The notes under the pieces are model-generated. The model saw only the letters and a list, made by a program, of their open reading frames with translations. It made no database searches and was not told the origin of the DNA. Shown here one piece after another: positions 4,276-33,335 of a DNA stretch of 64,000 nucleotides (the stretch's first letter is position 1; the number at the start of each line of letters is the position of its first letter). A program made the translations under genes and the position numbers. The stretch is taken from the NCBI GenBank assembly GCA_963934165.1, contig CAWVXH010000001.1:22098-86097 (forward strand), read 5' to 3'. The stretch is from an uncultured Candidatus Poseidoniales archaeon (GTDB lineage Archaea; Thermoplasmatota; Poseidoniia; Poseidoniales; Thalassarchaeaceae).

Positions 4276-4280
4276 ACCAA

Positions 4281-8316: not shown

Positions 8317-8317
8317 T

Positions 8318-8785
8318 CTAAAAATTTTCAGGCAATTCAAAGGGACTGAATAGATGACCTGGGCTGTTCGCGCTGACCAATTGTTCCCTAGCCACTGATT
8401 CCCAATCTCGTAACAAAGTCAGACCGTTAATCAATGGTATTTCGGAATTATTCAGAATCGTTCGAATTATTGTATCAAATATATCCATCCTGTCTTGATC
8501 AATAGTTGAGATTACCCTCTCAATTGGGAATGAATCGATGGAGGGGTTTTGACCATCTGTATCGATATTCCAGGGTTGAGTTAATTCAATCGGCAAAATT
8601 TCACCGACAGCATCAGCCTTTGTGGTTAATTCATCACGTAATATTCGGATATATTTTGAAATAACTAATGCGACTTCAACAACCGGCAAACTGTATTGTT
8701 TGACGAAATTAGACATATTTTCTTGAAGGAATAATAATTTTTCTTCGATCGGCGCGTCAACGCTCGGAAATTGACTATCCTCCAT
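8318..8785 (-). CDS. Hypothetical acidic cytoplasmic protein
   Basis: 155-aa ORF that fills the gap between flanking genes without overlap. No recognisable motif. Confidence 0.4.
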   Translation of the reverse strand: MEDSQFPSVDAPIEEKLLFLQENMSNFVKQYSLPVVEVALVISKYIRILRDELTTKADAVGEILPIELTQPWNIDTDGQNPSIDSFPIERVISTIDQDRMDIFDTIIRTILNNSEIPLINGLTLLRDWESVAREQLVSANSPGHLFSPFELPENF

Positions 8786-8870
8786 CAGGTCGACCCAATC
8801 GTGATGAGCAAATTAATGCAATCCGTCCATATTCAGGAAATTAAATCAACACAATAAAAGAATCAGGAGA

Positions 8871-15600: not shown

Positions 15601-18156
15601 TCAATGACCCATAATCACTCGGTGCACTGAGTTTTGAACTTCTTTCATTCGATCAACTGCTCCTAATTCTCGGAAAACGGTCAAAGACCTTTGAAGATAA
15701 TCCATTCGTTGAGACCTATCGCTTTCTACCTCTCCTAATCGTGCTAATAATTCTCCTTGAAGGTGGCGGAAATCGTTCGCTTCAGCGAGTGCCAATCCTT
15801 CTAGATAATGTTCTGCAGCCTCATCCTTTTGATTAGCATCGCTGAGAACGTGGCCTAGAAGCATCTGAACTTCGACTGCGCTATGTGGGTCGGCTAATCG
15901 GGATAATACTTCCAATGCTCCTGAATAATGCATCATCGCCAATTCGTTGTCTTTAATCCGTGCATAATATCGACCAAGAACTGCTCGAGAACGTGCATGT
16001 AGAGTTTCATCACCGTTCTCTTTTGTTTCATCGTGAGCAATCATTGCATGATTTCGAGCTCGATCAAGTTCTCCCATCTCAAGGAAGGCGGATGCGAGTC
16101 TGATCCTCGATCCACAAAGTCTAGGGTCGCCTTCCGATTCAAGTAATTCCTCGACATTTCCGTAAACTTCCAGTGCATGACGATTATCTCGACGTCGGCG
16201 GAAAATATAGCCCATATTATTGTAGGATCTAGCTGCAGCAACTGCGTCCCTAATAGAGATTTGAATTTCTAGAGCTTTTCTGTGTAATTCTAATGCATCG
16301 TCGGTAGCGCCCCGCTTTACTGCTATATCTGCCCGAGCAGAATATAGGCGAGCCAATTGATTTCCTAACCGATTCTTTTTCGCGGAAGTAATTGCAGAAT
16401 CATACTCTAATTCAGCCTCATCCCATCGGCCTTGTAACGAAAGAATATTCCCTCTTAATTCACGAACCACACCCCAACCTTGAGCATCAAATCCATCCTG
16501 ATCCAACGCACGTAATATCCCCAATAATTCAGTGTGGCCGGCTTTAACCAGACCATGGCCTTCGTTGGTTAGTACTTCTGCTAATTCTTCAATTCGATCA
16601 GAACTATGAAGATGATAAATAAACTCAATTCGATCGGTTGGGCTATCTTTACGAGTTCGATACCAATCTACTGCTTTACCATGTAACTCTAGTTTGAGTT
16701 CAGATTCCATAGATCTCACTAAAAATTCACGGACTAAATCGTGCACATCATAATTCTCACTATCAGCTTGACGAGCAAGTCCTTTCTCAACTAATTCATC
16801 AAGTAAATCAATAACCACTTTTTGCTCACTAAGTGCATCTAATGACATCGGCTCACGGAATACAGCAATAGATCCTAGTAGCCTCTTTTGTGGCCCAGAA
16901 AGGCGGCTGAAAATTTCTTGCTCGACGAATGCTTCTAATGTTGCGTGGAACGTTCCACCAACACTCCCTCGATTAATCAATTCAAGTATGAGAGGATGGC
17001 CACGAGAAAGTGAATAAATATGTGAGAATTGTGTTGTTTCAATATCAGGCATTGCATTTAGAATTTGCCGGCTTGAATTTTGATCGAGCCCTTCTAGTGG
17101 CATGACCAAAGTCAAAATTTTTCCACTCGAATCTTGGTCAGGAATAACCATACGGAAGGACCGAGAAAACATCATTAGGCCAACTTCATCCAATTTTGGG
17201 AACTTTTTAGAAAGTCCACGTAATGTTGAGATCAACGTTTCATCTCCAACTTTGTGTAAATCATCGATGACGATAAGTGCTGGTGAATAGCCGATTCCTT
17301 CGACAATCAAATCGACTGCGACTGATGCCTGCGGGACTGGAGTCGCAGATAAATAATCAGATAAATCGTTAGAGCCCATCGCAGAGAGCCACTCTCCGAG
17401 CGCTTCAAGAAATGCTCTCGAACCTTCCCAATCTTGGCATCGATGATATATCAGATTACGGCGGTGGGTGAATCTCTCCAATACCTTCCCAGCCAAGGCA
17501 GTTTTCCCAATCCCTGCTATTCCAGGAACCAATATTGAAGATGATTGGGCTTCGAGAAGTTTGACTATATCTTCAACTTCCTTTTCACGGCCGTAAAATT
17601 TTCTTGTTCGAGGCAGATCATTAAGAGAGTAAATCAATTGTTTCTCAATTTGCTTAGATAAATCTCTCTCGATTAATTCTGCTGTAAGAACAGATAAATC
17701 AACCGAACCATTATCATCGATATAGCGAAGAAAATCTACATGACGTAATGGTAAATCGGTTATGTCCAGTGCTGAAGAGAGTACGACCGTCTCAGATCTC
17801 CCATCAGGATGAATTAATCTAACTGGTTGTTGGCTAACAGTATCCCAAATACTATTGGCGACTTCTGCTCCTGCATCGGTCAGAAAATATGCCTTTCTTT
17901 TTCTTGAAACACCAGTAACATGCGCTTGGCGTTCAATAAGTAAACCTTGTTCACGCATTCCAGATATCGCTCGAGGAACATTTGAACGAGCGATAGCAAC
18001 AGCATTTGCAATACCCATCTGGGAGAGGGCGAAAGGAACCTCGACCCTCTCCGAATAATCGACATAATCACGTAGATGCAATAGGATGCGTTCCTGAACA
18101 CCTGGACGTGGCAAGGCCATACTCGTCATACTTCGTCTGCGTGCTAATTCATTCAA
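15601..18156 (-). CDS. STAND-class NTPase: N-terminal winged-helix DNA-binding domain, NB-ARC-like P-loop module, C-terminal TPR array
   Basis: wHTH-like 'ILLHLRDY..FALSQMGIANAVAIARSNVPRAISGMREQGLLIE'. Walker A 'PGIAGIGKTALA' at about 17501-17524. Walker B 'ALIVIDDLH'. At least six TPR-like units lie in the last 300 aa or so (for example 'YNNMGYIFRRRRDNRHALEVY', 'ASAFLEMGELDRARNHA'). Confidence 0.8.
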   Translation of the reverse strand: MNELARRRSMTSMALPRPGVQERILLHLRDYVDYSERVEVPFALSQMGIANAVAIARSNVPRAISGMREQGLLIERQAHVTGVSRKRKAYFLTDAGAEVANSIWDTVSQQPVRLIHPDGRSETVVLSSALDITDLPLRHVDFLRYIDDNGSVDLSVLTAELIERDLSKQIEKQLIYSLNDLPRTRKFYGREKEVEDIVKLLEAQSSSILVPGIAGIGKTALAGKVLERFTHRRNLIYHRCQDWEGSRAFLEALGEWLSAMGSNDLSDYLSATPVPQASVAVDLIVEGIGYSPALIVIDDLHKVGDETLISTLRGLSKKFPKLDEVGLMMFSRSFRMVIPDQDSSGKILTLVMPLEGLDQNSSRQILNAMPDIETTQFSHIYSLSRGHPLILELINRGSVGGTFHATLEAFVEQEIFSRLSGPQKRLLGSIAVFREPMSLDALSEQKVVIDLLDELVEKGLARQADSENYDVHDLVREFLVRSMESELKLELHGKAVDWYRTRKDSPTDRIEFIYHLHSSDRIEELAEVLTNEGHGLVKAGHTELLGILRALDQDGFDAQGWGVVRELRGNILSLQGRWDEAELEYDSAITSAKKNRLGNQLARLYSARADIAVKRGATDDALELHRKALEIQISIRDAVAAARSYNNMGYIFRRRRDNRHALEVYGNVEELLESEGDPRLCGSRIRLASAFLEMGELDRARNHAMIAHDETKENGDETLHARSRAVLGRYYARIKDNELAMMHYSGALEVLSRLADPHSAVEVQMLLGHVLSDANQKDEAAEHYLEGLALAEANDFRHLQGELLARLGEVESDRSQRMDYLQRSLTVFRELGAVDRMKEVQNSVHRVIMGH

Positions 18157-18189
18157 GAATGTTCGTGATGGGTGATAATCAAAGTCTCA

Positions 18190-21100
18190 TCAATTATTGT
18201 AGTTTGGATCTTCTACCCATTCTTCAGATTCTTCGTCCCAAATCCATCCCTCATTGCTAGATTCTTCAGTAATTCCATCATCTTCAGAATCAGTAGATTC
18301 TTCGTCCTCTTCGAACTCCACAAAGAAATATGCAAATGCTCCTCCAATCAGACCTAAAACCACAATCGAGATTATTATTATCATCACTAATGGCATTCCT
18401 TCGTTAACTACTCCAACATATATTTTCTCTCCTTGGTAAATCTCTCCAGCATAACGGAATTCTGGAATCGATGAACCCCCCAATATCCTTGATGCAGGTA
18501 TTCCGAGAATCCAGGTGGAATTGTCACTGACAATTGTATTGTTGACAGGGTTTCCATCAATGGTTACTACTACGGTCTTTCCTGGTAGTGCGACGCCGGT
18601 GAATATTGCTAATTCGCCAGTCTGAATCCTATTCGATTCGGGAGAAAATATTTCGAAATTTATTCCGACAATTGTGAATGTTACCGGCATTGAGTTCATT
18701 TTCGAGCCATGAGGATCAGTTGCGAGAAAAACGACATTGTCTAAGGTCCATGTATCCATATCTGTATCATAGAAAAACATAGAAATTGGGTCATAAACAG
18801 CAATACCATCGACGCCGACACTGATTACAAGACCATAGTCGTCATCCGAAGTGAGTTCGGGATTATTGTAAACTGATAATATCAATTCTTGATTAACATC
18901 AGCATCGGAAAAGAATTGCATCAAATCAATTGAAGCCTTTGTACAGCGATCTTGAGATTGGGAATCAATTTCACAATAAAGTGTGATCTCTTGTACCCAA
19001 TTTGCTGAATCGAATGATGGTTGATTATTTCCAGCATCTGGTGGATTATCTGCTGTGATAGCGATTGTAGTCATCTCACTGTAATCGTATCCGTCATATG
19101 CAGTAACTTCAATCGAATATTGATAATCATGAATCAAGTGCGTTGAATCCCAGTCGGCTACCCAACCACCATTCGGTAATATCTCAGTCACTGATTGTTC
19201 GTGGACAATTGTACCGCCATTGAAAATATCTCTGACAGTTATGTCTATTCTAGATACTTCACCATCATTATCTCTCGCAACCCCTTGAATCTGAGAATTT
19301 ACTCCAACAGACATTCTATCGCCATCTTGTGGTGAAATCAAACTAACAAACGGCATTGAATTGGAATTGTCCACAGTTAATGTAAGAACGACTGGCTCAC
19401 ATTCATCAATCACTCCAATGCAGAAATTTCCATCGGATGCCCAGATTGTAAATGTATAGTCAGCAACAGTCCTAGGTTGCCCACTAAAGTCCCAATTCCA
19501 GCTCCAATCGGAACCACCAGACGTGGGTGTGACACCCTCAAAATTAGGGCCACTGATATGGAAATATACAGAGCCAATGTCCTTACTACAATCGAGAGGG
19601 CACCCGTATTGATCGTAGGAGGTTCCTTCGAAAGTTATCGAACCTTCAGACCATGTTGAATGATCGCTTGGTGTCGTGACTGAAATTATTGGTGCTGCTG
19701 TATTCAATTTGATGGTTCGGGAAATTATCGGACTGTAATCAATACCATCATATGCGCGGAATTCAAAGGTGTAATCGCCCTCTTGCCGATTAGACATATC
19801 AAAAGAATAGTACCAATCAGAGAATGGATGATTATGCCTAGTTACGGTTCCTGTTGCCATTCCACTATCATCGACAGCGAGACCTGCCTCAATCCACTCA
19901 CCGGTGAATGGATTTCTGATTTCAATGGAGTGAACATATCCTTGTTGATCCCATTGAGCTAATTCATCGGTAGCGTAGAAACCGGCTAATTGTCCATCGT
20001 GAGCGGACCCGGTGAAATTAACAATCCTACGGAATGAATACCCCTCATATTGACTGACCGACACAGTAGGGCCATCATTGACCAGAGTGACCGTTTGTTG
20101 ATATGTAGTATCATCTAATGTGAACTCCCCTCTATCATATCCAAAACCAAATTTGTAAGCAGTATAGAAATATCGCGATAATTCCCGAGTTCCTGCTGCA
20201 TGATCGCAATCGTCATCGTCAGCATCAATATTCAAATCCCCATCGTTATCGATTCCATCCGAGCATGAATCTTCATATTCATCATCGGCAAATCCATCTG
20301 GATTATTTCCTCCCTCTAAACCTCTGAAGTCAAGATGAAAATCCGAGGGTAAAGCAAACCACGGAGTATATCCATCTTGATCTGTGTGCAATGAATAAAT
20401 ATCGTTTCCTAGCGCATCTTCGATCAAAACATTCGCGCTTTCAACGCGCTCACCATTGACTAAAGTTTGGAATCTTACCATCTCCGCTCGACGCACCTGA
20501 ACTGCAAATGGAGTTGGTTGAGTTGCAATATTTATTTTCGAGCGGTCTAGATTAGACAAATTTGCAAACGTGAAGGTTGTCGAATTATTATCCATCGATA
20601 CCGCCAGAGGGAAATCGATAGGAGTCAAATTGTCGCATGAAGAGCACTCTGAAACGGGGGTCGGAATGATTGCGTTTTGAAACCCATTTGCAGGCCATGC
20701 TTCTTGATCGGACCAAGAAAGCAATACGGGATTAATTCCCGCAGGAGGGCTGGGGATATATTCAGACTGAACTGTTACTGAAGATTTAGTGACATTGTAA
20801 GTAGTATCCACACCATTCCATAAATTTTGAGAAAAGAACGCTAACGAACCATATTGTTGAGAGTTTGCATAACCATCATCATAATGTTTGATAATTGCAC
20901 CGGTGCTTGGAACGTCGAAAATATTTCGTTGAACATCTAAAATAGCACCGATGGCACGGATTCCATCTGCATCTCCTCCAACACTAATTTGATTATCTTT
21001 CAAAGTAACTCCAGTTCGGAATACACTTACAGCTGGGCAAGTATAATCTCCGCCCCAATATTTATCACTGGAGCAAACTCCAGGTGAATTTTGAGTAATT

Positions 21101-22455
21101 GTATTGTTAACGAAATAGAGACGCGAAGCTGCCGGTGAAGGAGCTTGGTTACCAAATTCTCCCGCACGGAGTGGCTCTTTAGCAGTATTAACGATATTGT
21201 TTCGCTCTGCTATTACATCGTATGAACCAGTTAACCAAATTCCATTCCACCCACCTATAGGTCCTATATCGTTATCATGCATATTCACTTTACTAGATGA
21301 TATCGAAATTCCAGATGCTTCGCTTACTCCTGAAATTTCATTGCTGAATAATTCAGCCATCGCTCCATCATAAACATAAATTCCAGATCCTTCGGCAGTA
21401 GTTATTTCATTGTTAGAAATTGAGAATTCATAATCAACGCCTTGAATTGCTTTGCGACCATTTATCTCAATTGCATTACAATTCACACCCAAAACAGAAT
21501 TTGTAACATGACCTGCTGAATTGATTAAACTAAATCCATAATCCCCGATTCCAATATTTGCATTATTAATTTCGATAAATGTGTTTTCAGCCCAAACGGT
21601 TGGCCGACCACCATCTCGTTGACCACAGCCATTATCTGTTCCAACAAATGAAGGACTATCCATAACCAGTGGAGAAATATGTGTTCCAGAACCGTAGATT
21701 TGAACTGCGGAACCACCAACATCGCTCTCTGCGTCATTTCCTGCGACATATTCGCCACCGATAAAAGTTGGTTGAGCTAAATTTGTGGTCAGAACACTGC
21801 TGGTATTGATATCTGTGAAGGTCATTTCCGTCAACGTAGGGGCAGCACCATCGATAACCATTACACCATACCTCCAACGATTTACTGAATCGATAAAGTA
21901 TGGAATTCCCCAAGCCCCATCGAATGTCATATGTCGAAGTCCGGTTTGTGAAAGATCAATCGAACTTCGGATCAAAATCCCCTCAAAACATGATGGATCG
22001 TTAATATCGATGCTCTGGGTACCCTCTGACATTCCCAAACAAGTTCCATTTGCTTGGTCGTCAATGGGATCTGTCCACCTGAATGTAATTCTATTCGCGA
22101 GACTAGAATCGCCAGAAGCGCCACAAGAGGATTTTCCAGCACAGAGGTTTCCACGGACGTCGAGATAAGTTCCATTAGGAAAAATAACTGTAGTTCCTGG
22201 TTCGACAATTAGCTTGGCACCCGCAGAGATTGTAATGTCACCAGTTAGTTGATGAGTTCCCGACCAAACTTCAGTTCCAGAAATTGTTCCAGCCGTCGTT
22301 TCGTTATTTGCCATTACTATGCTTGCAGGGCCAACTAATGCAACTAACACACTTGAGAACATCAGGAAAACAAGGAAGTAACTTCTCGCACGCGGGTCAG
22401 TCATGTAATTTGCGGGTTCGAATTGTGATTTAATCATAGGGTCATATCGAGCCAT
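18190..22455 (-). CDS. 1,421-aa surface protein: signal anchor, right-handed parallel beta-helix region, Ig-like beta-sandwich modules, C-terminal TM anchor with acidic tail
   Basis: PbH1-like repeats ('ISNNEITTAEGSGIYVYDGAMAELFSNEISG', 'MHDNDIGPIGGWNGIWL', 'ERNNIVN'). Acidic Cys motif 'CSDGIDNDGDLNIDADDDDCD'. C-terminal 'LVMIIIISIVVLGLIGGAFAYFFV' followed by 'EFEEDEESTDSEDDGITEESSNEGWIWDEESEEW'. Confidence 0.8.
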   Translation of the reverse strand: MARYDPMIKSQFEPANYMTDPRARSYFLVFLMFSSVLVALVGPASIVMANNETTAGTISGTEVWSGTHQLTGDITISAGAKLIVEPGTTVIFPNGTYLDVRGNLCAGKSSCGASGDSSLANRITFRWTDPIDDQANGTCLGMSEGTQSIDINDPSCFEGILIRSSIDLSQTGLRHMTFDGAWGIPYFIDSVNRWRYGVMVIDGAAPTLTEMTFTDINTSSVLTTNLAQPTFIGGEYVAGNDAESDVGGSAVQIYGSGTHISPLVMDSPSFVGTDNGCGQRDGGRPTVWAENTFIEINNANIGIGDYGFSLINSAGHVTNSVLGVNCNAIEINGRKAIQGVDYEFSISNNEITTAEGSGIYVYDGAMAELFSNEISGVSEASGISISSSKVNMHDNDIGPIGGWNGIWLTGSYDVIAERNNIVNTAKEPLRAGEFGNQAPSPAASRLYFVNNTITQNSPGVCSSDKYWGGDYTCPAVSVFRTGVTLKDNQISVGGDADGIRAIGAILDVQRNIFDVPSTGAIIKHYDDGYANSQQYGSLAFFSQNLWNGVDTTYNVTKSSVTVQSEYIPSPPAGINPVLLSWSDQEAWPANGFQNAIIPTPVSECSSCDNLTPIDFPLAVSMDNNSTTFTFANLSNLDRSKINIATQPTPFAVQVRRAEMVRFQTLVNGERVESANVLIEDALGNDIYSLHTDQDGYTPWFALPSDFHLDFRGLEGGNNPDGFADDEYEDSCSDGIDNDGDLNIDADDDDCDHAAGTRELSRYFYTAYKFGFGYDRGEFTLDDTTYQQTVTLVNDGPTVSVSQYEGYSFRRIVNFTGSAHDGQLAGFYATDELAQWDQQGYVHSIEIRNPFTGEWIEAGLAVDDSGMATGTVTRHNHPFSDWYYSFDMSNRQEGDYTFEFRAYDGIDYSPIISRTIKLNTAAPIISVTTPSDHSTWSEGSITFEGTSYDQYGCPLDCSKDIGSVYFHISGPNFEGVTPTSGGSDWSWNWDFSGQPRTVADYTFTIWASDGNFCIGVIDECEPVVLTLTVDNSNSMPFVSLISPQDGDRMSVGVNSQIQGVARDNDGEVSRIDITVRDIFNGGTIVHEQSVTEILPNGGWVADWDSTHLIHDYQYSIEVTAYDGYDYSEMTTIAITADNPPDAGNNQPSFDSANWVQEITLYCEIDSQSQDRCTKASIDLMQFFSDADVNQELILSVYNNPELTSDDDYGLVISVGVDGIAVYDPISMFFYDTDMDTWTLDNVVFLATDPHGSKMNSMPVTFTIVGINFEIFSPESNRIQTGELAIFTGVALPGKTVVVTIDGNPVNNTIVSDNSTWILGIPASRILGGSSIPEFRYAGEIYQGEKIYVGVVNEGMPLVMIIIISIVVLGLIGGAFAYFFVEFEEDEESTDSEDDGITEESSNEGWIWDEESEEWVEDPNYNN

Positions 22456-22493
22456 AGGCTCGTTTGATACAATGGAATAATACTTGATACAAA

Positions 22494-23732: not shown

Positions 23733-23779
23733 CTTAATTCCTTCCAAATATCCCGATGGTGGCTCGTGTAATAGCCCTA

Positions 23780-26700
23780 TCAGAATGGTGCACTCGGTCG
23801 GCGTGAACGAGTTTTGGTTAATACGAATGCTGCTATTAACAGCATTGCGCCCAATAACCATCCAATCCAATCGGTGGTTCCATCAAGTGAAGGTGAACGG
23901 ACATCGACATTCTTCGATGGAAATTCCTCTACCGAGTTGAAACCACTTGAATTGATATCGAAATCAATATAATATGGTCCAATATCAATATCAGATAAGT
24001 CGATAACTAAACTATATGACACAGAAGATCCAGCAGGAATGTCCTTGATTGCAAATGCTGAAACATCAGTTGGTTCGGCACAATAGATATCATAGCAAAG
24101 AGTTGCATTCACTTGTACCAAAGATGCATCCACGAGACCACTATTCTCAACAGTCACAAGATAATTTACTTTTGTTCCTGTTTCCGCCTGTCCCAAATTA
24201 CCACTCGATGCTGAGAAATCTAATATTTTCAAAATTGGTTCTGAAGTTCTCACATTAATTTCAATTATTTCATAGGTGCCATTTGCCTTATCAGTAACCG
24301 AGACATAGATTGTGAAATCCTCTTCACCTGTAGCATTTGCAGGAGCAGAGACAATCATAGTATGCGTCGAGCTGACAAATCCGCCAATAGTGTGTGAAGT
24401 TGCTCCAGTTCGTTCCCAACTCAGAGGGAGTTCAGAATCATCAAATTCAAATTCGTATCTTTCATCACCATTTCCAGAGTTAGTGAATTTGATGCCGATT
24501 TGCTTTGACTCTCCAATAGAAATACCATACACATCATCCATCGGCTCGGAAAGTTCGAAGTCATGCAGCTGTGGAACTCTCACCAAGACATCATGAGATA
24601 GGAAGAAGCCATCTTGAGTTGAAAATTGAATAGATATTGTGTGTCCTTCTATGAAAGAATGAGATACATTTTGTTCTGCTGGAGTCACACGAATGTGCAA
24701 ATCAGTGAACGAAACTGAATTATCTAATCCGATATCAAAAGTAGTAGAAATATTCCAATCGCCTGAACCATTGTGGAACTCAACAACCCAATCTGCTGAA
24801 TCAGAACCGGTTACAAGTGCACCGACCGAGTAAGAGTCGAAGGATTCGTGACCCAGATAATCTACAGCAAATATAAATTCCACTGGCACAAAGCCGTTTT
24901 CATCATCAGCGACGACCAGGACATTTCCAGCGGAACCAATGTATGAATCATCGCCGCTGGTTAAATTCAATGTAGTCACATCAATTGAATGATCTGCAGT
25001 TCGTGCATGTGTTAATGTCATATCAGGAGTTTCTTGTCCCGCATGAATATCAATTCCTTGGCCTCCGATGTAGGACATATTTCTGTCCATTTGATAGACC
25101 TCAAATTCACTTCGAAGATCGACTCGACCATTTGGCAGAATGATGCTCATTCCACCATCCTCATCAATTTCACCAACCCATTCTAAGCCGAGGCCTAGGT
25201 CAAGAACTAATTCTGAATCTACAACATCGACAAGAGTGAATGAATTTCCATCATAACCCAACCAATGCGTCTTGAGGGTTAAAATCCCACCATTAGATAA
25301 CGAAATATCTAGGTTTCCACCATCTGCTACGCTTGCATCAACCAACCCCATAGCAACTAAAGTTTGGTCGGTAACACTAGCACGCAGTATCCAATTGCCT
25401 GGTTCTACCATAGCAGACCAGTTTCCATTCCACACACCATCTTCTAGTACCTTTTCTGGAGTTATGTGATCTCGAATCAATCCCTTGGTTGGAATCAACT
25501 CTAGAACGATTGAATCAGATATTGAAGAGAATTCGGTTTCATCGATATACGAGATCATTCCTGATATCAATACTTGACCAGCTGTTAATTCAATATCGAT
25601 ACTGTTTGAGGAGCTTCCAACCGAAACAGCACGGCTGACATCCTCGAACCCTTCGTATGAAGTATTTAGGTCCCAAAATGTATCAGCAGGAACGTAATAA
25701 CTCCAATCGCCATTAACATCCGTCGTTAGATTCGCTTCTAACATTCCATCACTATCGATAATCATCAAAGTAACATTGACGATTCCTTCAACCGCATTGG
25801 CCTCATTGTTATCGTTCAAATCCCAGAAGATAGTGCCGCTGAGTTCTACGAATAATTGAGCTGTGATGTTGTAATCATTTTCTCCGCCAACATCGACTGA
25901 AATTGGAATGGACTCGACTAACCACTGTTTACCAGAATCAATGTGATCCAATGACACCTCCCAATTCCCTGGAACCAGATCGATAGTGACCGTTCCGTCA
26001 GAATTGGTATTGTCGATACTGAAGGTGCCTAAACCATCTGTAGATTCAAGATTTAATCGCACATCACCAATAGGGCTTACTGAATTATCTTCATAGAGAG
26101 TGAAAGAGACTTGTGCCAATTCGCTAGTAGACATTTCTAGATCTAATTCAGCGTTATCAGCAGAAACCGAAATCAACTCACGTAAGCCTTCTGAAATTCC
26201 TATTGATTCAACATCGGTAGAGACAATCCAATCGCCCTCACCAATGAAATCATTAATCATTCCATTATCATCAGTAATTCTTGAAAGAATCCAACTACTG
26301 TCTGTATTGGTAAATCTAACTAATTGTTCAGCTAAAATACCGCCGCTCTCGTTAGTGAAAGCAATACTAACGCGCCATTCAGGATCGAAACCAATAGCCC
26401 GCTCAACAACGGTACCATCAAGGCCAATATCGAAAAGAACATCACCACTCATGATTCGAGTTCCAAATAAGTCACCATCATTCGCATCGGAAATATCAAC
26501 CGAGATTCGGTATGTTCCAGGTTCGAGTGGAACCACTGCGTGACCGACATTTGTCCATTCGGTTCCATTCCACTGAATTGGGTAATCAATTCCAGAATTC
26601 ATCATTGAGATAATTGTGAAATTGTAGCGCACTGCAGTCCCGTTCGAGGCATTGTTATCATCGGAATGATCGAGGAAGAAATCTATTTCTGCATTTGTAT

Positions 26701-29700
26701 TTGCAGGATAAACTAAGATTTCAACCGTATTATTGATTCCATCGACATTTGTTGAATTGGTAACAGGAGCCAACCATTCGCTATCTTCAAGAGTGAAATT
26801 CCACATACCCTTAGGGAGAACCATTTGGAATAGTCCGGTCTCATCGACTCCAGCCCGCCATGTCACATCATAATCAGAATTTGTAGCAATAACCACTACT
26901 GGCTCCCAACCTCCAATATTTGCGTTGTAAGTATTACCGATTCGATTGATGTCAATAGCACCCGCAATACCATGGCCTGGACGAGCATCGATTGAAACAG
27001 CATCCATGCCATCTTCGACAATGAAACGAATTCCATCGACTAATTTGATATTCTCACCGAGTTGAACTGTTGCATCTACTGTCGACCCTTGAGGAAGAAC
27101 AACTGAGAAGTATCCATCACCATCAGTTTGAACCGAGGTACTAAATCCACTCCAATAGAAGTCGACCTGAACATGATCGAGAGTTTTGGACACATTCAGT
27201 GGTGAATCCAGACTTGCATTTTCATTATAGTAAACCGTTCCAGTTACTAACTGGCTGGTGTGGAAGTAATAATCTGCACTAAAATCATCAGAACCAATCT
27301 CAATCTGCTCCCATAGTTGTTCTTCATTCGAAAGTGTATGGTTTAGAATCCATATTCCCTCCGTTAACTCTACGTAATACGAACCAGCCTCTGAATCATA
27401 AATTGCTTCGACCAGATTACCACTTCCATCTTTCATGTGGAAACTGACGTTTAGGTCAGCAATCTCTTCATCGACACCGTCGACTGTCTGAAATAGTCCA
27501 AAGCTGACATCAGAAGTCACAGGAACCGGCATTGGGAATTCAAATTCGGATGATTCATTCGCATCGAATAAGTAATTTGCAGATAATTCGTTGAATCCAT
27601 CTCCATCAATATCGATTTCTGCAATATATTCACCAGGAATAATAGGGCCGAATTCAAATTTGCCTTCTTCATCAGGTGTAATCAAACAAGGAGCTTGACC
27701 AGTTTCTTCACAATTATCAACAACATCTGCTGCATCCGTGTCAGCATCGCGGAGAATAACTGTTCCAGTGACCGCTTCACCATCAAAATTGATTAGGTTA
27801 CCAAAGAGAGATCCTCCTGTAATATCAATCTTAGTGATGTAATTCACAGCGTTTTGAGGTATTGTAAATCCATCATTGATTTCAATACGGCGATCATCAC
27901 CAAAGACAATGGTCACATCGTAATTACCAGGTATTGCATCGACGATGTGGAATGTACCTGGCTCGACCATATCTCCACCAAATACCCCTTCACCGGTAAA
28001 GATACCAGATCCATTTAGAGTCCCATATGATTCGAGATCCATCGTAGTGTCAGTCGTGAACACACCACTTCCAATCAGCGTTGAATGGCTATACTTTTGC
28101 GTGAAAGAGGACGACCCATTTGCTGTGAATCGCCCGGTCGCATTAACGGCTCCATTGAGCAAATATTCCCCAGATGAAGTCATACAAAGCCCAGAGTCTT
28201 CTGGCATAGTATCATTCTCATCACAATCGGAAATTTCAATATCATCGTTAACCATTCCATCGAGCAAACCTCGCCCGGAGAATTCTCCGTCACCAGTCAA
28301 ACTGTGATTATGATAAATGACTTGAGTGAAATTTCCAGTGAAATCAGTTGCAGTCACTATACTTTGAGAAACTACGGAACCATCACCAGTGAATGTTACT
28401 TCTCCGATACCATCGAATCTTAGGTTTTCACCCTCGACAGTCCCAACTGAAGTTGTTAGCACATATGGTTGGAGTTGAATCTCATCCCAAGATGGAGTCA
28501 GTTCGATCGTAACATCAGTAACTGAATCTCCATCGAATAATTCTGAACCACTCCAAACTAGGCGTCCTATAGCGTGAGCTGGGTTGACAATTATTGGAGC
28601 ATCGATGTGAGCCTCTCCATTACTGTGTCCATCTTCGCCTGAAATATTAACGATGGTTTCAGATAACCATGTTGAACCGGAAACATTTGCGAGAATTCCA
28701 GTAACTGGATTTATCGATCTTACCCCTGTTGATGAGGCTTCGAATATATCACCGAAAGTAGATTGAATGTCTGAAGTCATGATTTGAGCACGAGCAGATG
28801 CAAGATCAGATTCACCGAAATATGCAGTAACACGAATCTTACCTGCAGGTGCTTGGAAACTATATCTACCGTTTTCATCAGCATCAGTGGTTCCAATAGG
28901 AATCCAATAAGTTCTGTCATCTCGATCTATGACTTCTCCATCAACAGCGATTTCATCGCCACTGAAAGCATCACGCTCTATCAAAATACGAGCATTGGGG
29001 ACTACTCCATGGCCATCTAATTCGACAGTCCCTTCTAGAGTTGCACCACTATAGTACTTCATTACCTTCACTTGAGTATTTGCAGATCCTATGGTCGGGT
29101 TCGAGCAAGTCGAGTCAAGTTTTGTTCCGTTTTCATCTACTTCACAACGCTCTGCATCATACCAATTCGAAAGAACTAGGTTGTTCATCATAGCACCAGG
29201 AAGTGGGTAGGCATTTTCGAGGTATGAACCAGGAGCACCGCTCAAGTAAAAATGAGGCATTGGTGCTTCTGCATCCCCTCCCAATCCTAGAGTCGAAGTG
29301 CCGTATCCTACGTATATACGTGCAACCATGGTTTCGAAAAATTCCGGCTGGTGTTGATAATCAATATCGACCATGCGAATAATAGGAGTTCCATCACCTT
29401 GGCCACTGTATTGATTGAGAATTATATCATTCTGGTACTCTAGATCGAATTCTTCAACGGTTCGAGGAATTATCGGGTCATCCCCTCTCTGTGTAAGATA
29501 AACAGATGAGACGTATGTATCAGTATCTAATCCTGAAAGCGTAGTAGGGGCATGGAAAATCCCAGTAGTTTGTCCTCGGTGATAGGAATAATCTTCGTAA
29601 TATTTACCTCCAAGTGGGTATAGTCTGTTATCTACAGCAAAGTAACGAATATCGTTATTTCGAGTTATCATTTCTCCGAGACTGCCTTCGTAATCTTGTA

Positions 29701-32700
29701 CATCATACTCGATATTTGTGGTCATGTCATGATACATATCACCGAGTTGATCATTGTCGAAAGCTTCTAAGAGGAATGCTCGACTAAGAGATAACCTTGC
29801 ATTTGTACGATGAAGACCCGTTGAGACATCATCGTAATCTTTAATCAAATCAGGAGTGTAGAGGTAACCACTAATTTCATAGTATTCAACCTCTAAATCA
29901 AATTCCCCCACACTAGAACGAGCCTGGTTGTAGAGAGACATCGCCTCCGACCGGTCGGTTGAAAGGTTGCCATATTGTTCACCATCTAAGCGAACCATCC
30001 ACTGGTCTTCTAATTCTAATGTACCATCATCTGCAAGAATACCACCAAAGAGTAGTTCCACATTGTCATCTGTAGCCATTACCGCTAGTGCGCGAGATTC
30101 AACCATTTCAGAGTCACCAACTGCAAGACTAATGATTAAGTTGAATTCTTCAATCTGGGCATCGCTCATGTGTGACAACAGTATATCATTGAATTCATCA
30201 GTGAATCCTTGACCATCATTGTATCTACGGTCACCTTGAGCGAGGGTTGTGATGAATAGAGAAAGTGTATCATCTTGGCCCGCAGCGAGTAACATTGCTC
30301 CGCTATTTGGGATACCAGACTGAAAGTTATCAGCCACTGTTGGGTGCTGACCTTGTGCTAAAGCCTGGAAACCATAATCCCACCATGAAACGAATGCGGG
30401 TCGCTCAGAAAATGAAACGTCAGAATCTTGTTCAGATAGCCAGTCATAAGCCATATTCCAAGACCCAGAATTGAAACCTGGGCCGAATGTACCCATGTAC
30501 CAAAGATCCCCTCCTTCTGGGTCGTAATTATTACTGTTTAGAACTGATAAACCAAGGGCTTCAAGTCGGAAAATATCAGGTGCAATGTCATGAATAATTT
30601 GGTCGACATCAGTTGCTGAATTTTCACCACGTGGGATACCGGAGTCTATTCCATAAGTCATGTGTTGTGAGGAAATCATCAATATTACCATCAACATTGC
30701 TGGTATGCCAGGATTACTCTTACTAGCAGGCCAAATCGAACGGAATCGTGTTCGAGGAGTTCCAATACCAGAACGACGCCATTCCTTAGCGAAGCCAACG
30801 AAATTAGCACGTTGCCACATCGACGAGATTCCAATTCCGCCAACAACAGCCATTGCAGGTGTAGCGTTGAAAATGAAACGGCCTGCTGAGAAGGCCATGT
30901 ATGCTGCGATGAATACCCAGAGGCCGAGGAGCATATCTCCTTGCTTCTCCTTTCTTGCACCTTTCCATATCATGATAAAAGCAACACCCATTGAAATTAG
31001 GAATACAATAGGTCCATATGAAGCGAAAAGAACACCTCGGCTTGGTGCTTGTGCCTCACCAATTGTTCCGAAAATCTTGTTCTTAGAGAAGTAAAAACCG
31101 CCAGTAAAGAGGATGTCCCAGCCATTGTAAATTTCTGCGTATTGTAGAGCATATAGTAAACCTAAAATTCCACCCATTAGGAATATTCCACTACCTAGAA
31201 CAAGAAGCCAAGGCTTGTCACGGAATGAACATGTGACCCAACCAAGAGCAAGGGTAAATCCAATGATGTAAAACATCGGTTGGAATCCGCTAGGGTCGAA
31301 TAATAAATTCAATCCAGGCCAGGTGTAGAATGGTAATGGAATCAAGAAAGTAGTTAGCATCATTTGCAGAGCTGCCGAAGTCAATGGTAGACTGTCACGT
31401 CGGCGAATCATATTCAGGAAAATTTGTCCAGCAAAAGCAAGGAATAGAATTCCGGGCCCGTAAACAAAACCTTTCCAACCAAGTGCAACTGTTGCAAATG
31501 ATATTCCAGAAAGAGTAGCATTGGCCATCACAGCAGGGCTGCGTGACCACATTTCTCTAATTCCGGCGAATAGATAGAGGGGGTTTGAACTAGGATTTGA
31601 GAAAATCCTCTCGTTCTGAATTTGATCGACTGCTTTCACCCAGAAGTAAAATGCCAAAGCGAGGAATAACAGAGCGAAAGCGTCGTGATCGGCCAAACCG
31701 AATGTGGAATGGCTGATATGACCCGGCATCAAAGCGATTAGCCAAGCAGCAAATATTCCTGCTTGCTTACTATGAACACGGCGTGCTAATCCAGCTATTG
31801 GTAATACGATTAACGCACCAAATATCGCTGGCATAGCGGCAACGCTCCACCATGCAACCTCTTCTACGGCAATTCCGGTAAGCCAAGAAAGGCCGATTCC
31901 ACCGAGTGCTAACGACCACGAGAAAAGTGGTGGTCGAGGATTAATGGCACCCATTGGATAAGCTCGATCAGCATCAAAGATGTAGTGGCTGCGTTCTGCG
32001 ATGATATAATCGACAACACGCTTCATGTACCAAGGGTCAGAGCCGCCAGTCATATCCCAAAGTCCGGTTCCTGATGCATTCATAGCAGGAAGGACGTTCC
32101 ATCCAGTTCGAATAGCTAGACCGACAAATATGGCTGAACCAACTAAAATTCCATACGAGTGGGCTTGCCACCAGCGGCGAATATCTGATTTCTGTCGCAT
32201 AGGAGCAATGCCACCAAAGTAACCGCGGGATGCTATCATTACCCCGCCAACATTCAACCAGAAAGCCAAGAAGAACCAAGCTATTGTGCTGGTGAAACTA
32301 TTACCTGAAAGCAATTCAGGGAAACTATTACCTATTTCTTGTAGATGACCAAAGGTGTACATCATCCAGTTCACTCCTACAAGCGTCCCCAATACATGCC
32401 AGCGTTCTGCATGACAGAATGCAAGGAACATGATAACTAACGATGTAAATAATGCCCACACAGAACCGAGATACTGATGGTCAGAGAAAACTTGTAAATC
32501 ATTGATTTGACCAAGCCAAATTATTGGAATCAAGTTTACAACAAAAATTGCACCCACAAATGATAAACCTTCAACTCCGAAAACCAGTGGGATATCAGAG
32601 AACCAAGAACCTGAGCCGGCTTCTTCGATTCTGCCCCGCATTGCCAATGTAAGGAATAAACCCAGAACTATTGCCGCTGCCCAGAATCCAAAGAACATCG

Positions 32701-33217
32701 ATCCACTTGCTGCTCGAGCTACATCAATCATCTCTGCTGCATTACCAGCCCAATTACTGTCATCGAATACATGTCGAGCCGAATATGCAACTGCGAGATG
32801 AAAACCGATTACAATTGATAGAAGAATTGATGACTCTTCATTCCTATTGCTCAAAATAAGCGCAAAGGTGGAAATACCAATGAATGCGAATGTGAATCCG
32901 ATTATCGAAGATGTTAGTCCTGCATAAATCGAAATTATTGAAGCGGCTAAAAATCCTAGTGGGACAATTGCTGCTCGGTGTTTCGAGGTGAATGAATTGC
33001 TAAGTGAAATAACTGTAGCGATTCGGCCCAGTGCCGCAGCAAATGCTGCAGCAATTGGCAGAATCAGGATGTTCATATATCCGTCATTTTCAATATTACC
33101 ATTTGCAAGGAAATCAGCTCCAAAGAAAAGTACCAGTAAAGTCACTAGTACAGCAGGGGCTGCAAGGATTTTTCCGAGTGGAAAATCGCTATCCTTTGCA
33201 TCTTTCATTTCGTTCAT
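23780..33217 (-). CDS. aglB: Giant (about 3,145 aa) archaeal oligosaccharyltransferase AglB/STT3 fused to an extra N-terminal polytopic block and a very long C-terminal beta-sandwich extension ending in a TM anchor
   Basis: Uninterrupted 9.4-kb ORF. The STT3 signature 'WWDYG' is encoded at 30371-30385 ('FVSWWDYGFQALAQGQHPTVADNFQ'). The first-loop acidic motif 'GGSDPWYMKR' is at 32027-32038, and a second acidic motif is 'GLADHDAFALLF'. The polytopic region holds more than 20 hydrophobic segments. The C-terminal part repeats units such as 'GRYSFQAPAGKIRVTAYF' and 'DGTVTIDLVPGNWEVSL', then ends in 'WIGWLLGAMLLIAAFVLTKTRSRR'. The track start is TTG at 33223, and the first ATG is at 33217. Confidence 0.85.
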   Translation of the reverse strand: MNEMKDAKDSDFPLGKILAAPAVLVTLLVLFFGADFLANGNIENDGYMNILILPIAAAFAAALGRIATVISLSNSFTSKHRAAIVPLGFLAASIISIYAGLTSSIIGFTFAFIGISTFALILSNRNEESSILLSIVIGFHLAVAYSARHVFDDSNWAGNAAEMIDVARAASGSMFFGFWAAAIVLGLFLTLAMRGRIEEAGSGSWFSDIPLVFGVEGLSFVGAIFVVNLIPIIWLGQINDLQVFSDHQYLGSVWALFTSLVIMFLAFCHAERWHVLGTLVGVNWMMYTFGHLQEIGNSFPELLSGNSFTSTIAWFFLAFWLNVGGVMIASRGYFGGIAPMRQKSDIRRWWQAHSYGILVGSAIFVGLAIRTGWNVLPAMNASGTGLWDMTGGSDPWYMKRVVDYIIAERSHYIFDADRAYPMGAINPRPPLFSWSLALGGIGLSWLTGIAVEEVAWWSVAAMPAIFGALIVLPIAGLARRVHSKQAGIFAAWLIALMPGHISHSTFGLADHDAFALLFLALAFYFWVKAVDQIQNERIFSNPSSNPLYLFAGIREMWSRSPAVMANATLSGISFATVALGWKGFVYGPGILFLAFAGQIFLNMIRRRDSLPLTSAALQMMLTTFLIPLPFYTWPGLNLLFDPSGFQPMFYIIGFTLALGWVTCSFRDKPWLLVLGSGIFLMGGILGLLYALQYAEIYNGWDILFTGGFYFSKNKIFGTIGEAQAPSRGVLFASYGPIVFLISMGVAFIMIWKGARKEKQGDMLLGLWVFIAAYMAFSAGRFIFNATPAMAVVGGIGISSMWQRANFVGFAKEWRRSGIGTPRTRFRSIWPASKSNPGIPAMLMVILMISSQHMTYGIDSGIPRGENSATDVDQIIHDIAPDIFRLEALGLSVLNSNNYDPEGGDLWYMGTFGPGFNSGSWNMAYDWLSEQDSDVSFSERPAFVSWWDYGFQALAQGQHPTVADNFQSGIPNSGAMLLAAGQDDTLSLFITTLAQGDRRYNDGQGFTDEFNDILLSHMSDAQIEEFNLIISLAVGDSEMVESRALAVMATDDNVELLFGGILADDGTLELEDQWMVRLDGEQYGNLSTDRSEAMSLYNQARSSVGEFDLEVEYYEISGYLYTPDLIKDYDDVSTGLHRTNARLSLSRAFLLEAFDNDQLGDMYHDMTTNIEYDVQDYEGSLGEMITRNNDIRYFAVDNRLYPLGGKYYEDYSYHRGQTTGIFHAPTTLSGLDTDTYVSSVYLTQRGDDPIIPRTVEEFDLEYQNDIILNQYSGQGDGTPIIRMVDIDYQHQPEFFETMVARIYVGYGTSTLGLGGDAEAPMPHFYLSGAPGSYLENAYPLPGAMMNNLVLSNWYDAERCEVDENGTKLDSTCSNPTIGSANTQVKVMKYYSGATLEGTVELDGHGVVPNARILIERDAFSGDEIAVDGEVIDRDDRTYWIPIGTTDADENGRYSFQAPAGKIRVTAYFGESDLASARAQIMTSDIQSTFGDIFEASSTGVRSINPVTGILANVSGSTWLSETIVNISGEDGHSNGEAHIDAPIIVNPAHAIGRLVWSGSELFDGDSVTDVTIELTPSWDEIQLQPYVLTTSVGTVEGENLRFDGIGEVTFTGDGSVVSQSIVTATDFTGNFTQVIYHNHSLTGDGEFSGRGLLDGMVNDDIEISDCDENDTMPEDSGLCMTSSGEYLLNGAVNATGRFTANGSSSFTQKYSHSTLIGSGVFTTDTTMDLESYGTLNGSGIFTGEGVFGGDMVEPGTFHIVDAIPGNYDVTIVFGDDRRIEINDGFTIPQNAVNYITKIDITGGSLFGNLINFDGEAVTGTVILRDADTDAADVVDNCEETGQAPCLITPDEEGKFEFGPIIPGEYIAEIDIDGDGFNELSANYLFDANESSEFEFPMPVPVTSDVSFGLFQTVDGVDEEIADLNVSFHMKDGSGNLVEAIYDSEAGSYYVELTEGIWILNHTLSNEEQLWEQIEIGSDDFSADYYFHTSQLVTGTVYYNENASLDSPLNVSKTLDHVQVDFYWSGFSTSVQTDGDGYFSVVLPQGSTVDATVQLGENIKLVDGIRFIVEDGMDAVSIDARPGHGIAGAIDINRIGNTYNANIGGWEPVVVIATNSDYDVTWRAGVDETGLFQMVLPKGMWNFTLEDSEWLAPVTNSTNVDGINNTVEILVYPANTNAEIDFFLDHSDDNNASNGTAVRYNFTIISMMNSGIDYPIQWNGTEWTNVGHAVVPLEPGTYRISVDISDANDGDLFGTRIMSGDVLFDIGLDGTVVERAIGFDPEWRVSIAFTNESGGILAEQLVRFTNTDSSWILSRITDDNGMINDFIGEGDWIVSTDVESIGISEGLRELISVSADNAELDLEMSTSELAQVSFTLYEDNSVSPIGDVRLNLESTDGLGTFSIDNTNSDGTVTIDLVPGNWEVSLDHIDSGKQWLVESIPISVDVGGENDYNITAQLFVELSGTIFWDLNDNNEANAVEGIVNVTLMIIDSDGMLEANLTTDVNGDWSYYVPADTFWDLNTSYEGFEDVSRAVSVGSSSNSIDIELTAGQVLISGMISYIDETEFSSISDSIVLELIPTKGLIRDHITPEKVLEDGVWNGNWSAMVEPGNWILRASVTDQTLVAMGLVDASVADGGNLDISLSNGGILTLKTHWLGYDGNSFTLVDVVDSELVLDLGLGLEWVGEIDEDGGMSIILPNGRVDLRSEFEVYQMDRNMSYIGGQGIDIHAGQETPDMTLTHARTADHSIDVTTLNLTSGDDSYIGSAGNVLVVADDENGFVPVEFIFAVDYLGHESFDSYSVGALVTGSDSADWVVEFHNGSGDWNISTTFDIGLDNSVSFTDLHIRVTPAEQNVSHSFIEGHTISIQFSTQDGFFLSHDVLVRVPQLHDFELSEPMDDVYGISIGESKQIGIKFTNSGNGDERYEFEFDDSELPLSWERTGATSHTIGGFVSSTHTMIVSAPANATGEEDFTIYVSVTDKANGTYEIIEINVRTSEPILKILDFSASSGNLGQAETGTKVNYLVTVENSGLVDASLVQVNATLCYDIYCAEPTDVSAFAIKDIPAGSSVSYSLVIDLSDIDIGPYYIDFDINSSGFNSVEEFPSKNVDVRSPSLDGTTDWIGWLLGAMLLIAAFVLTKTRSRRPSAPF

Positions 33218-33335
33218 TATCAATCACCATTAGGTCGAGCCTATAGGCTCGGCAACGCGGCCAAAATTATTCGTGTTATAGCCTTGCTGGCGAGAGAGAT
33301 AAAACCATTCGCCATAGTAATGCTTCTTCCTTGGC

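Follow-up and report, generated by a model that had tools for sequence, protein, structure and literature searches.

A conserved envelope-gene neighbourhood around a giant AglB oligosaccharyltransferase in Poseidoniales archaea

Few uncultured microbes of the surface ocean are as abundant as the Marine Group II (MGII) archaea, the Poseidoniales, and to our knowledge their cell envelope is essentially unknown. Here we analyze a block of four minus-strand genes (15601-33223) in a 64-kb window, by which we mean the whole analyzed stretch of DNA from an uncultured, Thalassarchaeaceae-like Candidatus Poseidoniales archaeon (contig CAWVXH010000001.1, positions 22,098 to 86,097). From its upstream end the block encodes a giant oligosaccharyltransferase (OST) AglB, a subtilase of the S8 family, a large beta-helix surface protein and a STAND transcription factor of the PH0952 type, all of them members of known families. 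An initial annotation of this DNA proposed that the block could be a self-contained module, namely a single operon in which the beta-helix/Ig-like protein, as a major envelope or S-layer-like glycoprotein, would be glycosylated by AglB and matured by the S8 protease, with transcription of the unit under the control of the STAND protein.

The four consecutive minus-strand open reading frames (ORFs) of the initial annotation are present, with confirmed coordinates (23780-33217/33223, 22494-23732/23870, 18190-22455 and 15601-18156), and the S8 gene is 96% identical to a gene on the contig of a Candidatus Poseidoniales metagenome-assembled genome (MAG). The domain identities proposed for the four products have been also confirmed by a Pfam scan over all window ORFs of at least 150 aa, combined with hydropathy analysis for transmembrane (TM) segments: STT3, Peptidase_S8, Beta_helix with Big_7, and AAA_16 with TPR and a weak N-terminal HTH. 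Two gene starts, on the other hand, have to be moved. In orthologues from other genera no open frame extends upstream of the beta-helix gene, and their conserved start is equivalent to M18 in the originally called ORF (nt 22404); the protein, whose domains and C-terminal TM segment are as described, is therefore 1,404 rather than 1,421 aa long, and the spacer between the S8 and beta-helix genes is 89 nt rather than 38. The STAND gene most likely begins at the ATG at 18129 or 18120 rather than at the TTG at 18156, which extends the preceding spacer from 33 to 60-69 nt, so that of the three spacers originally reported only the 47 nt between aglB and S8 stand. Median values over 51-72 distinct orthologous junctions are 55, 91 and 67 nt, in the order aglB/S8, S8/beta-helix and beta-helix/STAND. 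The tightness of the block had been taken as a sign of one transcription unit, but such distances are the background of a compact genome: carS-purD and SHMT-M60 peptidase are each 58 nt apart, several same-strand pairs in the window overlap by 4 nt or sit 9 nt apart, and there are two same-strand runs of six genes. Since unrelated genes of the window are comparably spaced, spacing is uninformative on co-transcription.

Judged from its sequence, AglB is an OST of the GT66 family with intact catalytic motifs. It matches PF02516 (STT3) with 75.7 bits against a cut-off of 24.5 (aa 381-617) and AglB-L of PDB entry 3WAJ with an E-value of 2.8e-10, the alignment extending over the TM core. The motifs DPWY (394), ADHD (509), TIGE (718) and WWDYG (945), which we take by position, not from a structure-based alignment, to correspond to the catalytic and recognition residues of the Archaeoglobus fulgidus enzyme, show little or no variation among 14 orthologues. 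The score against the archaeosortase-A-associated STT3 model TIGR04154 of NCBIfam (155.2 bits) is below the cut-off of 450. The protein is probably the general N-glycosylation enzyme of the cell. What sets it apart is its size, which is 3,146-3,228 aa in the other Poseidoniales. The N-terminal block of ten TM segments is specific to this order and contains several invariant Trp, Phe, Arg and Glu residues; its AlphaFold2 (AF2) model reaches pLDDT 78 and pTM 0.78, no Pfam family was matched, and Foldseek returned no match to a solved fold (best E 0.23, TM-score at most 0.24). The stalk that follows the core evolves faster than anything else in the block: among 80 MGIIb metagenome loci, retrieved with a profile of the STAND protein, it is 32-53% identical where the STAND protein is 70-81% identical. 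BLASTP comparison of the stalk, the beta-helix protein and a 1,917-aa protein encoded downstream of the block revealed no matches, internal repeats or paralogy at 1e-3. Despite the highly variable stalk ahead, the last residues past the C-terminal TM segment (R-R/K-P-x-A-P-F-stop, 23780-23800) are conserved across MGIIb genera at both the protein and the DNA level, and may represent a tail for sorting or interaction on the cytoplasmic side.

Giant AglBs fall into two tiers, as revealed by a search of 1.84 billion representative proteins. The first comprises the Poseidoniales proteins of the above lengths, which have kept the N-terminal block, while the second has more than 100 representatives, 2,000-2,800 aa in length, whose alignment starts only at the STT3 core, and whose sources name them as MAG proteins of Marine Group III (MGIII), Thermoplasmata and Methanomassiliicoccales. 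In databases giant AglBs are filed under misleading names, for instance 'carboxypeptidase regulatory-like domain-containing protein'.

The product of the second gene is a membrane-anchored subtilase, as originally proposed. Its match to PF00082 (133 bits) covers the profile from position 1 to 288 of 288, and it has the complete triad D116/H153/S332 and the oxyanion N248 in the motifs DTG (116), HGT (153), GTS (330) and NTG (248). Hydropathy analysis indicates a type-II protein with an N-terminal cytoplasmic tail of about 53 aa, a single TM segment (aa 54-72) and a catalytic domain that is placed outside because the positive charges lie N-terminally to the TM segment. Matches to subtilisins and intracellular subtilisin proteases in PDB range from 1e-27 to 1e-23, the best being to intracellular subtilisins that have no propeptide. 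Likewise, no Inhibitor_I9 propeptide was matched in the Pfam scan, and the N-terminus is made of the tail and the TM segment, unlike in a classical secreted precursor. The score against the mycosin model TIGR03921 (98.6 bits) is below its cut-off of 278.75.

The third protein begins with a signal/TM segment, which is followed by a right-handed beta-helix (aa ~30-510 in the numbering of the corrected protein), a DNDGD motif rich in Cys and Asp, and Ig-like domains of the Big_7 family; it ends in a TM segment and an acidic cytoplasmic tail. An AF2 model of its N-terminal ~500 aa, built from a shallow alignment of 15 sequences (the homologue search gave 14 fragments), exhibits a long right-handed parallel beta-helix with a mean pLDDT of 72.5, and above 85 through most of aa 30-500. 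Its nearest solved folds (Foldseek E 1e-4 to 1e-3, probability ~1.0) are polysaccharide lyases, epimerases, tailspikes and an adhesin, namely the Klebsiella K1 capsule lyase, PL6 alginate lyases, the mannuronan epimerase AlgE4, phage tailspike depolymerases, a GH87 glucanase and the pneumococcal adhesin PfbA. The model thus assigns the protein to the fold class of carbohydrate-binding or -cleaving surface proteins, unlike known S-layer proteins, and Pfam and NCBIfam scans matched no S-layer family. In the published MAG SIMO Bin 19-2 the orthologue is unannotated, has a moderate transcript coverage of 0.16-0.18 and is not among the genes described as 'highly transcribed' (PMC9723583). The idea that it is an S-layer-like or major envelope protein is therefore not borne out.

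The fourth protein is composed of a putative N-terminal winged HTH (aa ~9-84), a NOD in which the Walker motifs A (GIAGIGKT) and B (LIVIDD) are both invariant in orthologues, and a TPR sensor. It matches PH0952 (PDB 6MFV) over aa 172-787 with an E-value of 7.8e-29, and AAA_16 and TPR_12 score above the Pfam cut-offs. The HTH matches are sub-threshold (HTH_Crp_2 with 21 bits, PadR, MarR_2); yet aa 9-84 are almost invariant in the alignment of MGIIa and MGIIb sequences, which would imply a conserved DNA target. PH0952 combines an ArsR-like effector with NOD and TPR regions, and its clade is the sister of the APAF1 clade (PMC6468293). The earlier label NB-ARC is on this account approximately right, although PF00931 was not matched at E<=0.01. 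The coordinates of all these features, and of the regulatory elements discussed below, are collected in Table 1.

Table 1. Coordinates of the four-gene block, its domains and its non-coding elements in the window
Feature	Position	Strand	Evidence or remarks
aglB, 3,145-aa oligosaccharyltransferase	23780..33217	-	Pfam STT3, PDB 3WAJ, motifs
aglB, extra N-terminal 10-TM block	aa 1-~350, nt ~32168-33217	-	hydropathy
aglB, STT3/AglB core	aa ~350-1050	-	D394 (DPWY), DHD 510-512, TIGE 718, WWDYG 945
aglB, sequon-rich beta-sandwich stalk	aa ~1050-3110, nt ~23888-30067	-	sequon z 4.7
aglB, C-terminal TM	aa 3115-3133	-	followed by conserved RRPSAPF tail
S8 subtilase, 412 aa	22494..23732	-	Pfam Peptidase_S8, PDB matches
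Surface protein, 1,404 aa	18190..22404	-	Pfam Beta_helix + Big_7, AF2 model, corrected start
PH0952-type STAND transcription factor, 842 aa	15601..18129	-	PDB 6MFV, Pfam AAA_16 + TPR_12
Palindrome GAGCCTATAGGCTC	33237..33250	.	20 nt upstream of aglB ATG, followed by Shine-Dalgarno-like GGTGAT
S8/beta-helix spacer, 89 nt	22405..22493	-	TGATAC-type boxes, palindrome, TATA-like box
GTATCA/TGATAC boxes, 20 nt apart	22465-22490	-	inverted orientation in this window
Palindrome GAGCCTATGGCTC	22449-22461	-	in S8/beta-helix spacer
TATA-like box TGATTAAATC	22427-22436	-	23-32 nt upstream of beta-helix ATG (22404)
Conserved box ACGAACATTCTTGAATG, 17 nt	18150..18166	-	non-coding; about 20-37 nt upstream of STAND ATG (18129); about 20-40 nt in orthologues
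purD	33336..34604	-	Pfam GARS_N/A/C; housekeeping, functionally outside the block, control for synteny

The initial annotation had proposed a check of synteny across related genomes, and the order aglB-S8-beta-helix-STAND was found to be kept in every Poseidoniales locus examined, in both families. It is present in three species-representative genomes, one of them a MAG of the Poseidoniaceae (MGIIa) with proteins 34-55% identical, and in both MGIIa representatives at 33-55% protein identity; in further MGIIb genera, with S8 identity of 63-69%; around the AglB representative that has diverged most (33% identity over its full length, 41% over the N-terminal 1,200 aa); in 80 out of 80 informative MGIIb metagenome loci, as far as the contigs reach; and in SIMO Bin 19-2 as well as in the original MG2 genome, judged there from the order of locus tags. 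In one locus (L007) the beta-helix gene seems to be lost, but this is explained by a scaffold gap of 100 N. In the published table for SIMO Bin 19-2 (genes 304-309; PMC9723583, supplementary file 4) several of these genes are mislabelled, the STAND gene as 'Signal recognition particle receptor FtsY', the S8 gene as 'Halolysin' and purD as 'Pyruvate carboxylase subunit A'.

Upstream of aglB, purD is present in all Poseidoniales loci checked and in the published MAG, and is thus as syntenic as the four genes themselves; the 601-aa gene upstream of purD is kept in both MGII families, while carS is present in some loci and absent from others. Downstream, 80 out of 80 MGIIb loci contain a gene for a protein of metallo-beta-lactamase (MBL) fold and the gene for the 1,917-aa protein, whereas MGIIa has other genes there, so that the flank switches between the two families exactly at the end of the STAND gene. 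In the window, the MBL gene (14791-15600) is convergent with the STAND gene and directly adjoins its stop codon, leaving no spacer. The 1,917-aa protein (8871-14624) is acidic and secreted, with 25 sequons vs 16 expected.

A purely historical explanation would hold that four functionally unrelated genes are adjacent only because the genomes of Poseidoniales are compact and slow to rearrange in this region. It draws on the order-wide adjacency of purD and aglB, on the retention of the 601-aa gene beyond purD, on the invariable downstream pair of MGIIb and on spacers at the genome background level. Besides, about one third of the window ORFs encode large secreted or membrane proteins (M60-like peptidase, PLD-like, CD36-like and acidic TSP3-repeat proteins), and a surface-protein neighbour of aglB is therefore expected by chance. 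Against this, the downstream flank has been replaced precisely at the end of the STAND gene, the varying presence of carS indicates that the region is not frozen, and the transcript coverage of the four genes is coordinated (see below). Regulator genes are commonly found next to a gene with conserved upstream repeats, and the STAND gene, directly behind a gene with such boxes, would fit this usual layout of regulator and target. On balance we consider mere history an unlikely explanation.

The linkage is not shared by giant AglBs at large: within 10 kb of aglB, no S8, beta-helix or STAND-like genes were found in one MGIII genome and two other Thermoplasmata contigs. Giant AglBs elsewhere also adjoin very large surface proteins, but different ones. 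On one of the Thermoplasmata contigs (Ga0265292_1000186, locus positions 1-9762) an 8,356-aa protein and a 1,077-aa protein with Ig/PKD repeats are encoded upstream of the giant AglB on the same strand.

Comparative footprinting of the upstream regions, based on 57-75 distinct orthologous sequences, revealed conserved elements in front of three of the four genes. In every lineage the aglB ATG is preceded, at a distance of 20-26 nt, by a palindrome of the form SAGCC-N4-GGCTS. It reads GAGCCTGCAGGCTC in other MGIIb genera and CAGCCTTTAGGCTG or CAGCCTTGAGGCTG in MGIIa, i.e. both arms have changed together between the families, and the form found here has no other exact match in the window. Upstream of the S8 gene nothing is conserved except Shine-Dalgarno-like GGTG motifs. 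In front of the beta-helix gene, the TATA-like box is conserved at 75-90% per position over 60 distinct orthologous regions, and it lies as far from the ATG as would be expected of an archaeal TATA box if the transcript has a short leader or none. Further upstream of this gene, 35% of distinct regions vs 2.4% of shuffles contain a pair of TGATAY boxes spaced by 19-20 nt, including both MGIIa loci. The 17-nt box preceding the STAND gene has several positions conserved at 90% or more over 75 distinct regions, while the remainder of that spacer is not conserved. A wider regulon of TGATAY boxes or GAGCC palindromes is not visible in the window; one other TGATAC-N15-TGATAC pair is located at 35499-35525, in the 5' part of the 601-aa ORF divergent from carS and purD, and one further palindrome, GAGCC-N3-GGCTC, at 47080-47092 inside the PLD-like gene.

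Runs of five or more T, the usual termination signal of archaea, are present in 38% of the distinct orthologous spacers after the S8 gene, in 12% after aglB and in 4% after the beta-helix gene; the spacers of this window contain none. As the T-runs are concentrated after S8, where the spacer is also the longest, a unit boundary is likely there. Together with the conserved boxes, the sequence data point to at least a boundary between the S8 and beta-helix genes and to separate regulatory inputs to the beta-helix and STAND genes.

Published transcript data are available for SIMO Bin 19-2 (PMC9723583, supplementary file 4). In its two informative samples, FN66 and FN71, the normalised coverage was 0 and 0.08 for purD, 0.35 and 0.38 for aglB, 0.18 and 0.16 for S8, 0.16 and 0.18 for the beta-helix gene, 0.19 and 0.18 for STAND, and 0.01 and 0.05 for the MBL gene, respectively. 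Expression of all four genes thus exceeds that of the flanks, and the values of the last three are almost equal, as would be compatible with read-through. Coordinated expression is supported by these data, a single promoter is not. The claim that the block is one transcription unit is doubtful: the similar coverage (PMC9723583) speaks for it, the conserved promoter-like boxes inside the block and the T-runs after S8 speak against it.

The proposed glycosylation link was examined by counting N-x-S/T sequons. The extracellular part of the beta-helix protein contains 12, compared to 14.6 +/- 3.3 expected from shuffles, and its 27 orthologues contain on average 12.2 compared to 14.5 expected. With no enrichment, the link finds no support in this count, and the sequence is not built like that of a heavily glycosylated coat protein. 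Eight of its sequon positions are, on the other hand, conserved in at least 24 of the 27 orthologues. Moreover, no glycosyltransferase, flippase, or sugar-nucleotide or sugar-synthesis gene was identified by Pfam among the ORFs of at least 150 aa in the window, and the block is therefore not an agl-type island. A lone 'Glycos_transf_3' match in the window turned out to be a nucleoside phosphorylase. The block is not a self-contained module: glycan-assembly genes are missing from the window, and purD is as syntenic as the four genes.

The single-operon model of the initial annotation has to be weighed against these results. It would explain the order kept in both MGII families next to a differing downstream flank, the similar coverage of the four genes above both flanks, the eight conserved sequons, the missing oligo-T runs in the spacers of this window and the fact that the three non-regulatory products all face the outside of the membrane. 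Against it stand sequons that are not enriched, a lyase- or tailspike-like fold in place of an S-layer-like one, a moderate coverage outside the 'highly transcribed' genes of PMC9723583, promoter-like elements and T-runs conserved within the block, the equal synteny of purD, the absence of glycan-assembly genes from the window, and the lack of linkage in MGIII and other Thermoplasmata. We find it only partly supported and regard it as unlikely.

While the beta-helix protein is not enriched in sequons, the stalk of AglB is: it contains 37 vs 19 expected (z 4.7), the excess reaches 66 vs 18 (z 12.5) in ten other Poseidoniales orthologues, and strong enrichment is found in 9 of the 11 Poseidoniales sequences and in several giants of MGIII and Thermoplasmata as well. 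The best candidate for a dense N-glycoprotein in the locus would therefore be the extension of AglB itself. This raises the possibility that the stalk is the main surface glycoprotein and is glycosylated in cis, that the co-transcribed S8 protease separates or trims it, and that the C-terminal TM segment holds it in the membrane. Such a scheme would account for a 2- to 3.5-fold sequon enrichment in most Poseidoniales orthologues and several second-tier giants, for a divergence of the stalk typical of exposed surface domains, for the conserved terminal TM segment with its RRPSAPF tail, and for the aglB/S8 junction being the shortest and the sole one without a conserved element. It is, however, at odds with giant AglBs outside MGII that have no adjacent protease, with an aglB coverage about twice that of S8, and with the failure to find a conserved cleavage site; we know of no experimental precedent for a self-glycosylating OST stalk, and consider the idea a long shot. 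An extended version, in which Poseidoniales would combine the OST and the principal surface glycoprotein (the 2,100-aa stalk) in one polypeptide, with a simpler form across Thermoplasmatota, S8 as the trimming protease and the STAND protein coupling the envelope or glycan status to expression of the beta-helix protein, is in our opinion just as improbable. If true, it would represent an envelope-building unit of a kind undescribed in archaea, with AglB itself and not the beta-helix protein as the glycoprotein. Finally, an anti-phage defence system, as might be read from the combination of a STAND protein and a subtilase, was rejected, as PADLOC returned a generic subtilase match and otherwise marginal matches with E ~1e-4 only.

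The interpretation we prefer, with moderate confidence, is that of a conserved envelope-gene neighbourhood specific to Poseidoniales (MGII), probably organized in two or three coordinated transcription units, and not of a dedicated glycoprotein factory. AglB, as the probable general OST, would find the best in-cis substrate of the locus in its own, lineage-typical stalk. S8 is probably co-transcribed with aglB, because nothing but a Shine-Dalgarno-like motif is conserved between them. The beta-helix gene would be transcribed from a separate TATA-like promoter, which would suit a leaderless mRNA, and its position and upstream repeat boxes make it the likeliest candidate target of the adjacent STAND factor. 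The latter would multimerize, by analogy with MalT and PH0952, on binding of a ligand to the TPR sensor, and the multimer would switch on the beta-helix surface protein and perhaps the STAND gene itself. On this view the S8 and beta-helix proteins would not be related as maturation protease and substrate; both would belong to the surface-anchored proteins for polymer processing or adhesion that are typical of MGII.

Several points weigh against the neighbourhood interpretation. The TGATAY boxes are absent from about half of the lineages, and the promoter-like boxes in general are recognized only by their conservation and position. The nearly equal coverage of S8, beta-helix and STAND genes would be explained by a polycistronic message no less well than by separate promoters. 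Selection for linkage may be the reason why the four-gene order is maintained at 33-55% protein identity, next to a downstream flank that differs. In addition, the eight conserved sequon positions mean that the beta-helix protein may well be a glycoprotein.

In agreement with the initial annotation, which was aware of no described system of this composition, the searched literature contains no account of giant AglBs or of this cluster, and no paper that joins Poseidoniales and AglB. Two things are accordingly undescribed in that literature: the giant-AglB architecture, above all the Poseidoniales form with the added block of ten TM segments, and the association of giant aglB, fixed throughout the order, with genes for a membrane subtilase, a surface protein of beta-helix fold and a regulator of the PH0952 type. 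The invariant gene set offers a concrete handle on the MGII envelope, comprising an OST with a huge and probably heavily glycosylated stalk, an ecto-protease, a surface protein of carbohydrate-active type, and a ligand-sensing regulator with candidate operators. Should the stalk be glycosylated in cis, it would be an unusual fusion of an enzyme with its substrate; should it not, the locus would still be a useful marker and a candidate regulon for the surface biology of MGII.

Other parts of the window encode further large surface proteins. Two paralogous, very acidic (~30% D+E) TSP3-repeat genes are located at 56290-58389 (699 aa) and 58495-61203 (902 aa), the second with a local GC content of 57% vs 42% elsewhere and 18 sequons vs 8.8 expected. 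Each is followed by a convergent tRNA-Asn(GTT) gene: an intact copy at 61204-61279, and at 58422-58489 a copy with a degenerate 5' half that shares the 3' ~45 nt with the intact one. The arrangement looks like a tandem duplication of a unit of gene and tRNA, or an old integration at a tRNA. A 908-aa protein matches Pfam CD36 with 37 bits against a cut-off of 26.5, a family best known from lipid scavenger receptors of eukaryotes, and its gene adjoins that of an 849-aa PLD-like phospholipase with a lamin-tail domain (both genes within 43173-48522). As the archaeon is thought to feed on lipids, the two proteins may act as a pair in acquiring them at the cell surface. Another large surface hydrolase is a secreted M60-like peptidase of the enhancin type (1,327 aa, 50856-54839), which contains Ig domains of the He_PIG family; glycoproteins or mucins are typical substrates of M60 enzymes.

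Comparison with known systems places each component in a familiar context. In Haloferax volcanii, AglB together with the agl genes and the archaeosortase ArtA act on the S-layer glycoprotein, and this pathway resembles the concept put forward in the initial annotation, of glycosylation by an OST and processing by a second enzyme, both directed at one envelope glycoprotein. The MGII block, however, has a subtilase instead of an archaeosortase and no PGF-CTERM signal, its candidate substrate is neither sequon-rich nor equipped with an S-layer domain, and its AglB remains below the cut-off of the archaeosortase-A-associated STT3 model. The link between AglB and the S-layer is cited in PMC3750248.

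The STAND protein shares with the factors of PH0952 and MalT type the NOD with Walker A and B motifs and the TPR sensor, and has a putative winged-HTH effector at its N-terminus. It scores far below the NCBIfam cut-offs of the MalT and AfsR families. Multimerization and binding to repeated boxes is the mechanism of MalT as well. By analogy with PH0952-type proteins, ligand-released autoinhibition, ATP-dependent multimerization and binding to repeated promoter boxes would be expected here (PMC6468293). The beta-helix protein has in its N-terminal ~500 aa the fold of the lyases, epimerases, tailspikes and PfbA, in agreement with the Pfam Beta_helix match, but it is just 8-13% identical to them, with TM-scores of 0.2-0.4. 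In addition it has Ig-like domains that span ~850 aa, as well as a TM anchor and, on the cytoplasmic side, an acidic tail.

As for AglB itself, the giant proteins of MGIII, Methanomassiliicoccales and other Thermoplasmata MAGs are 28-37% identical to the MGII form in the core and possess a collinear, weakly homologous stalk (20-27% identity), sequon-enriched in several cases; they differ in being 500-900 aa shorter, without the N-terminal block, and those of MGIII and Thermoplasmata have unrelated neighbours (PTH2, Endo_dU, a tRNA synthetase and others) in place of the S8, beta-helix and STAND genes. With A. fulgidus AglB-L (3WAJ) and Hfx. volcanii AglB the MGII enzyme shares the STT3/GT-C core with the EL1 acidic, DHD, TIxE and WWDYG motifs, whereas its gene is located outside any agl cluster of glycosyltransferases and flippases, and the protein is ~3.5 times longer, with an N-terminal block of ten TM segments that resembles no recognizable solved fold and a sequon-rich beta-sandwich stalk of ~2,100 aa that carries its own C-terminal TM segment.

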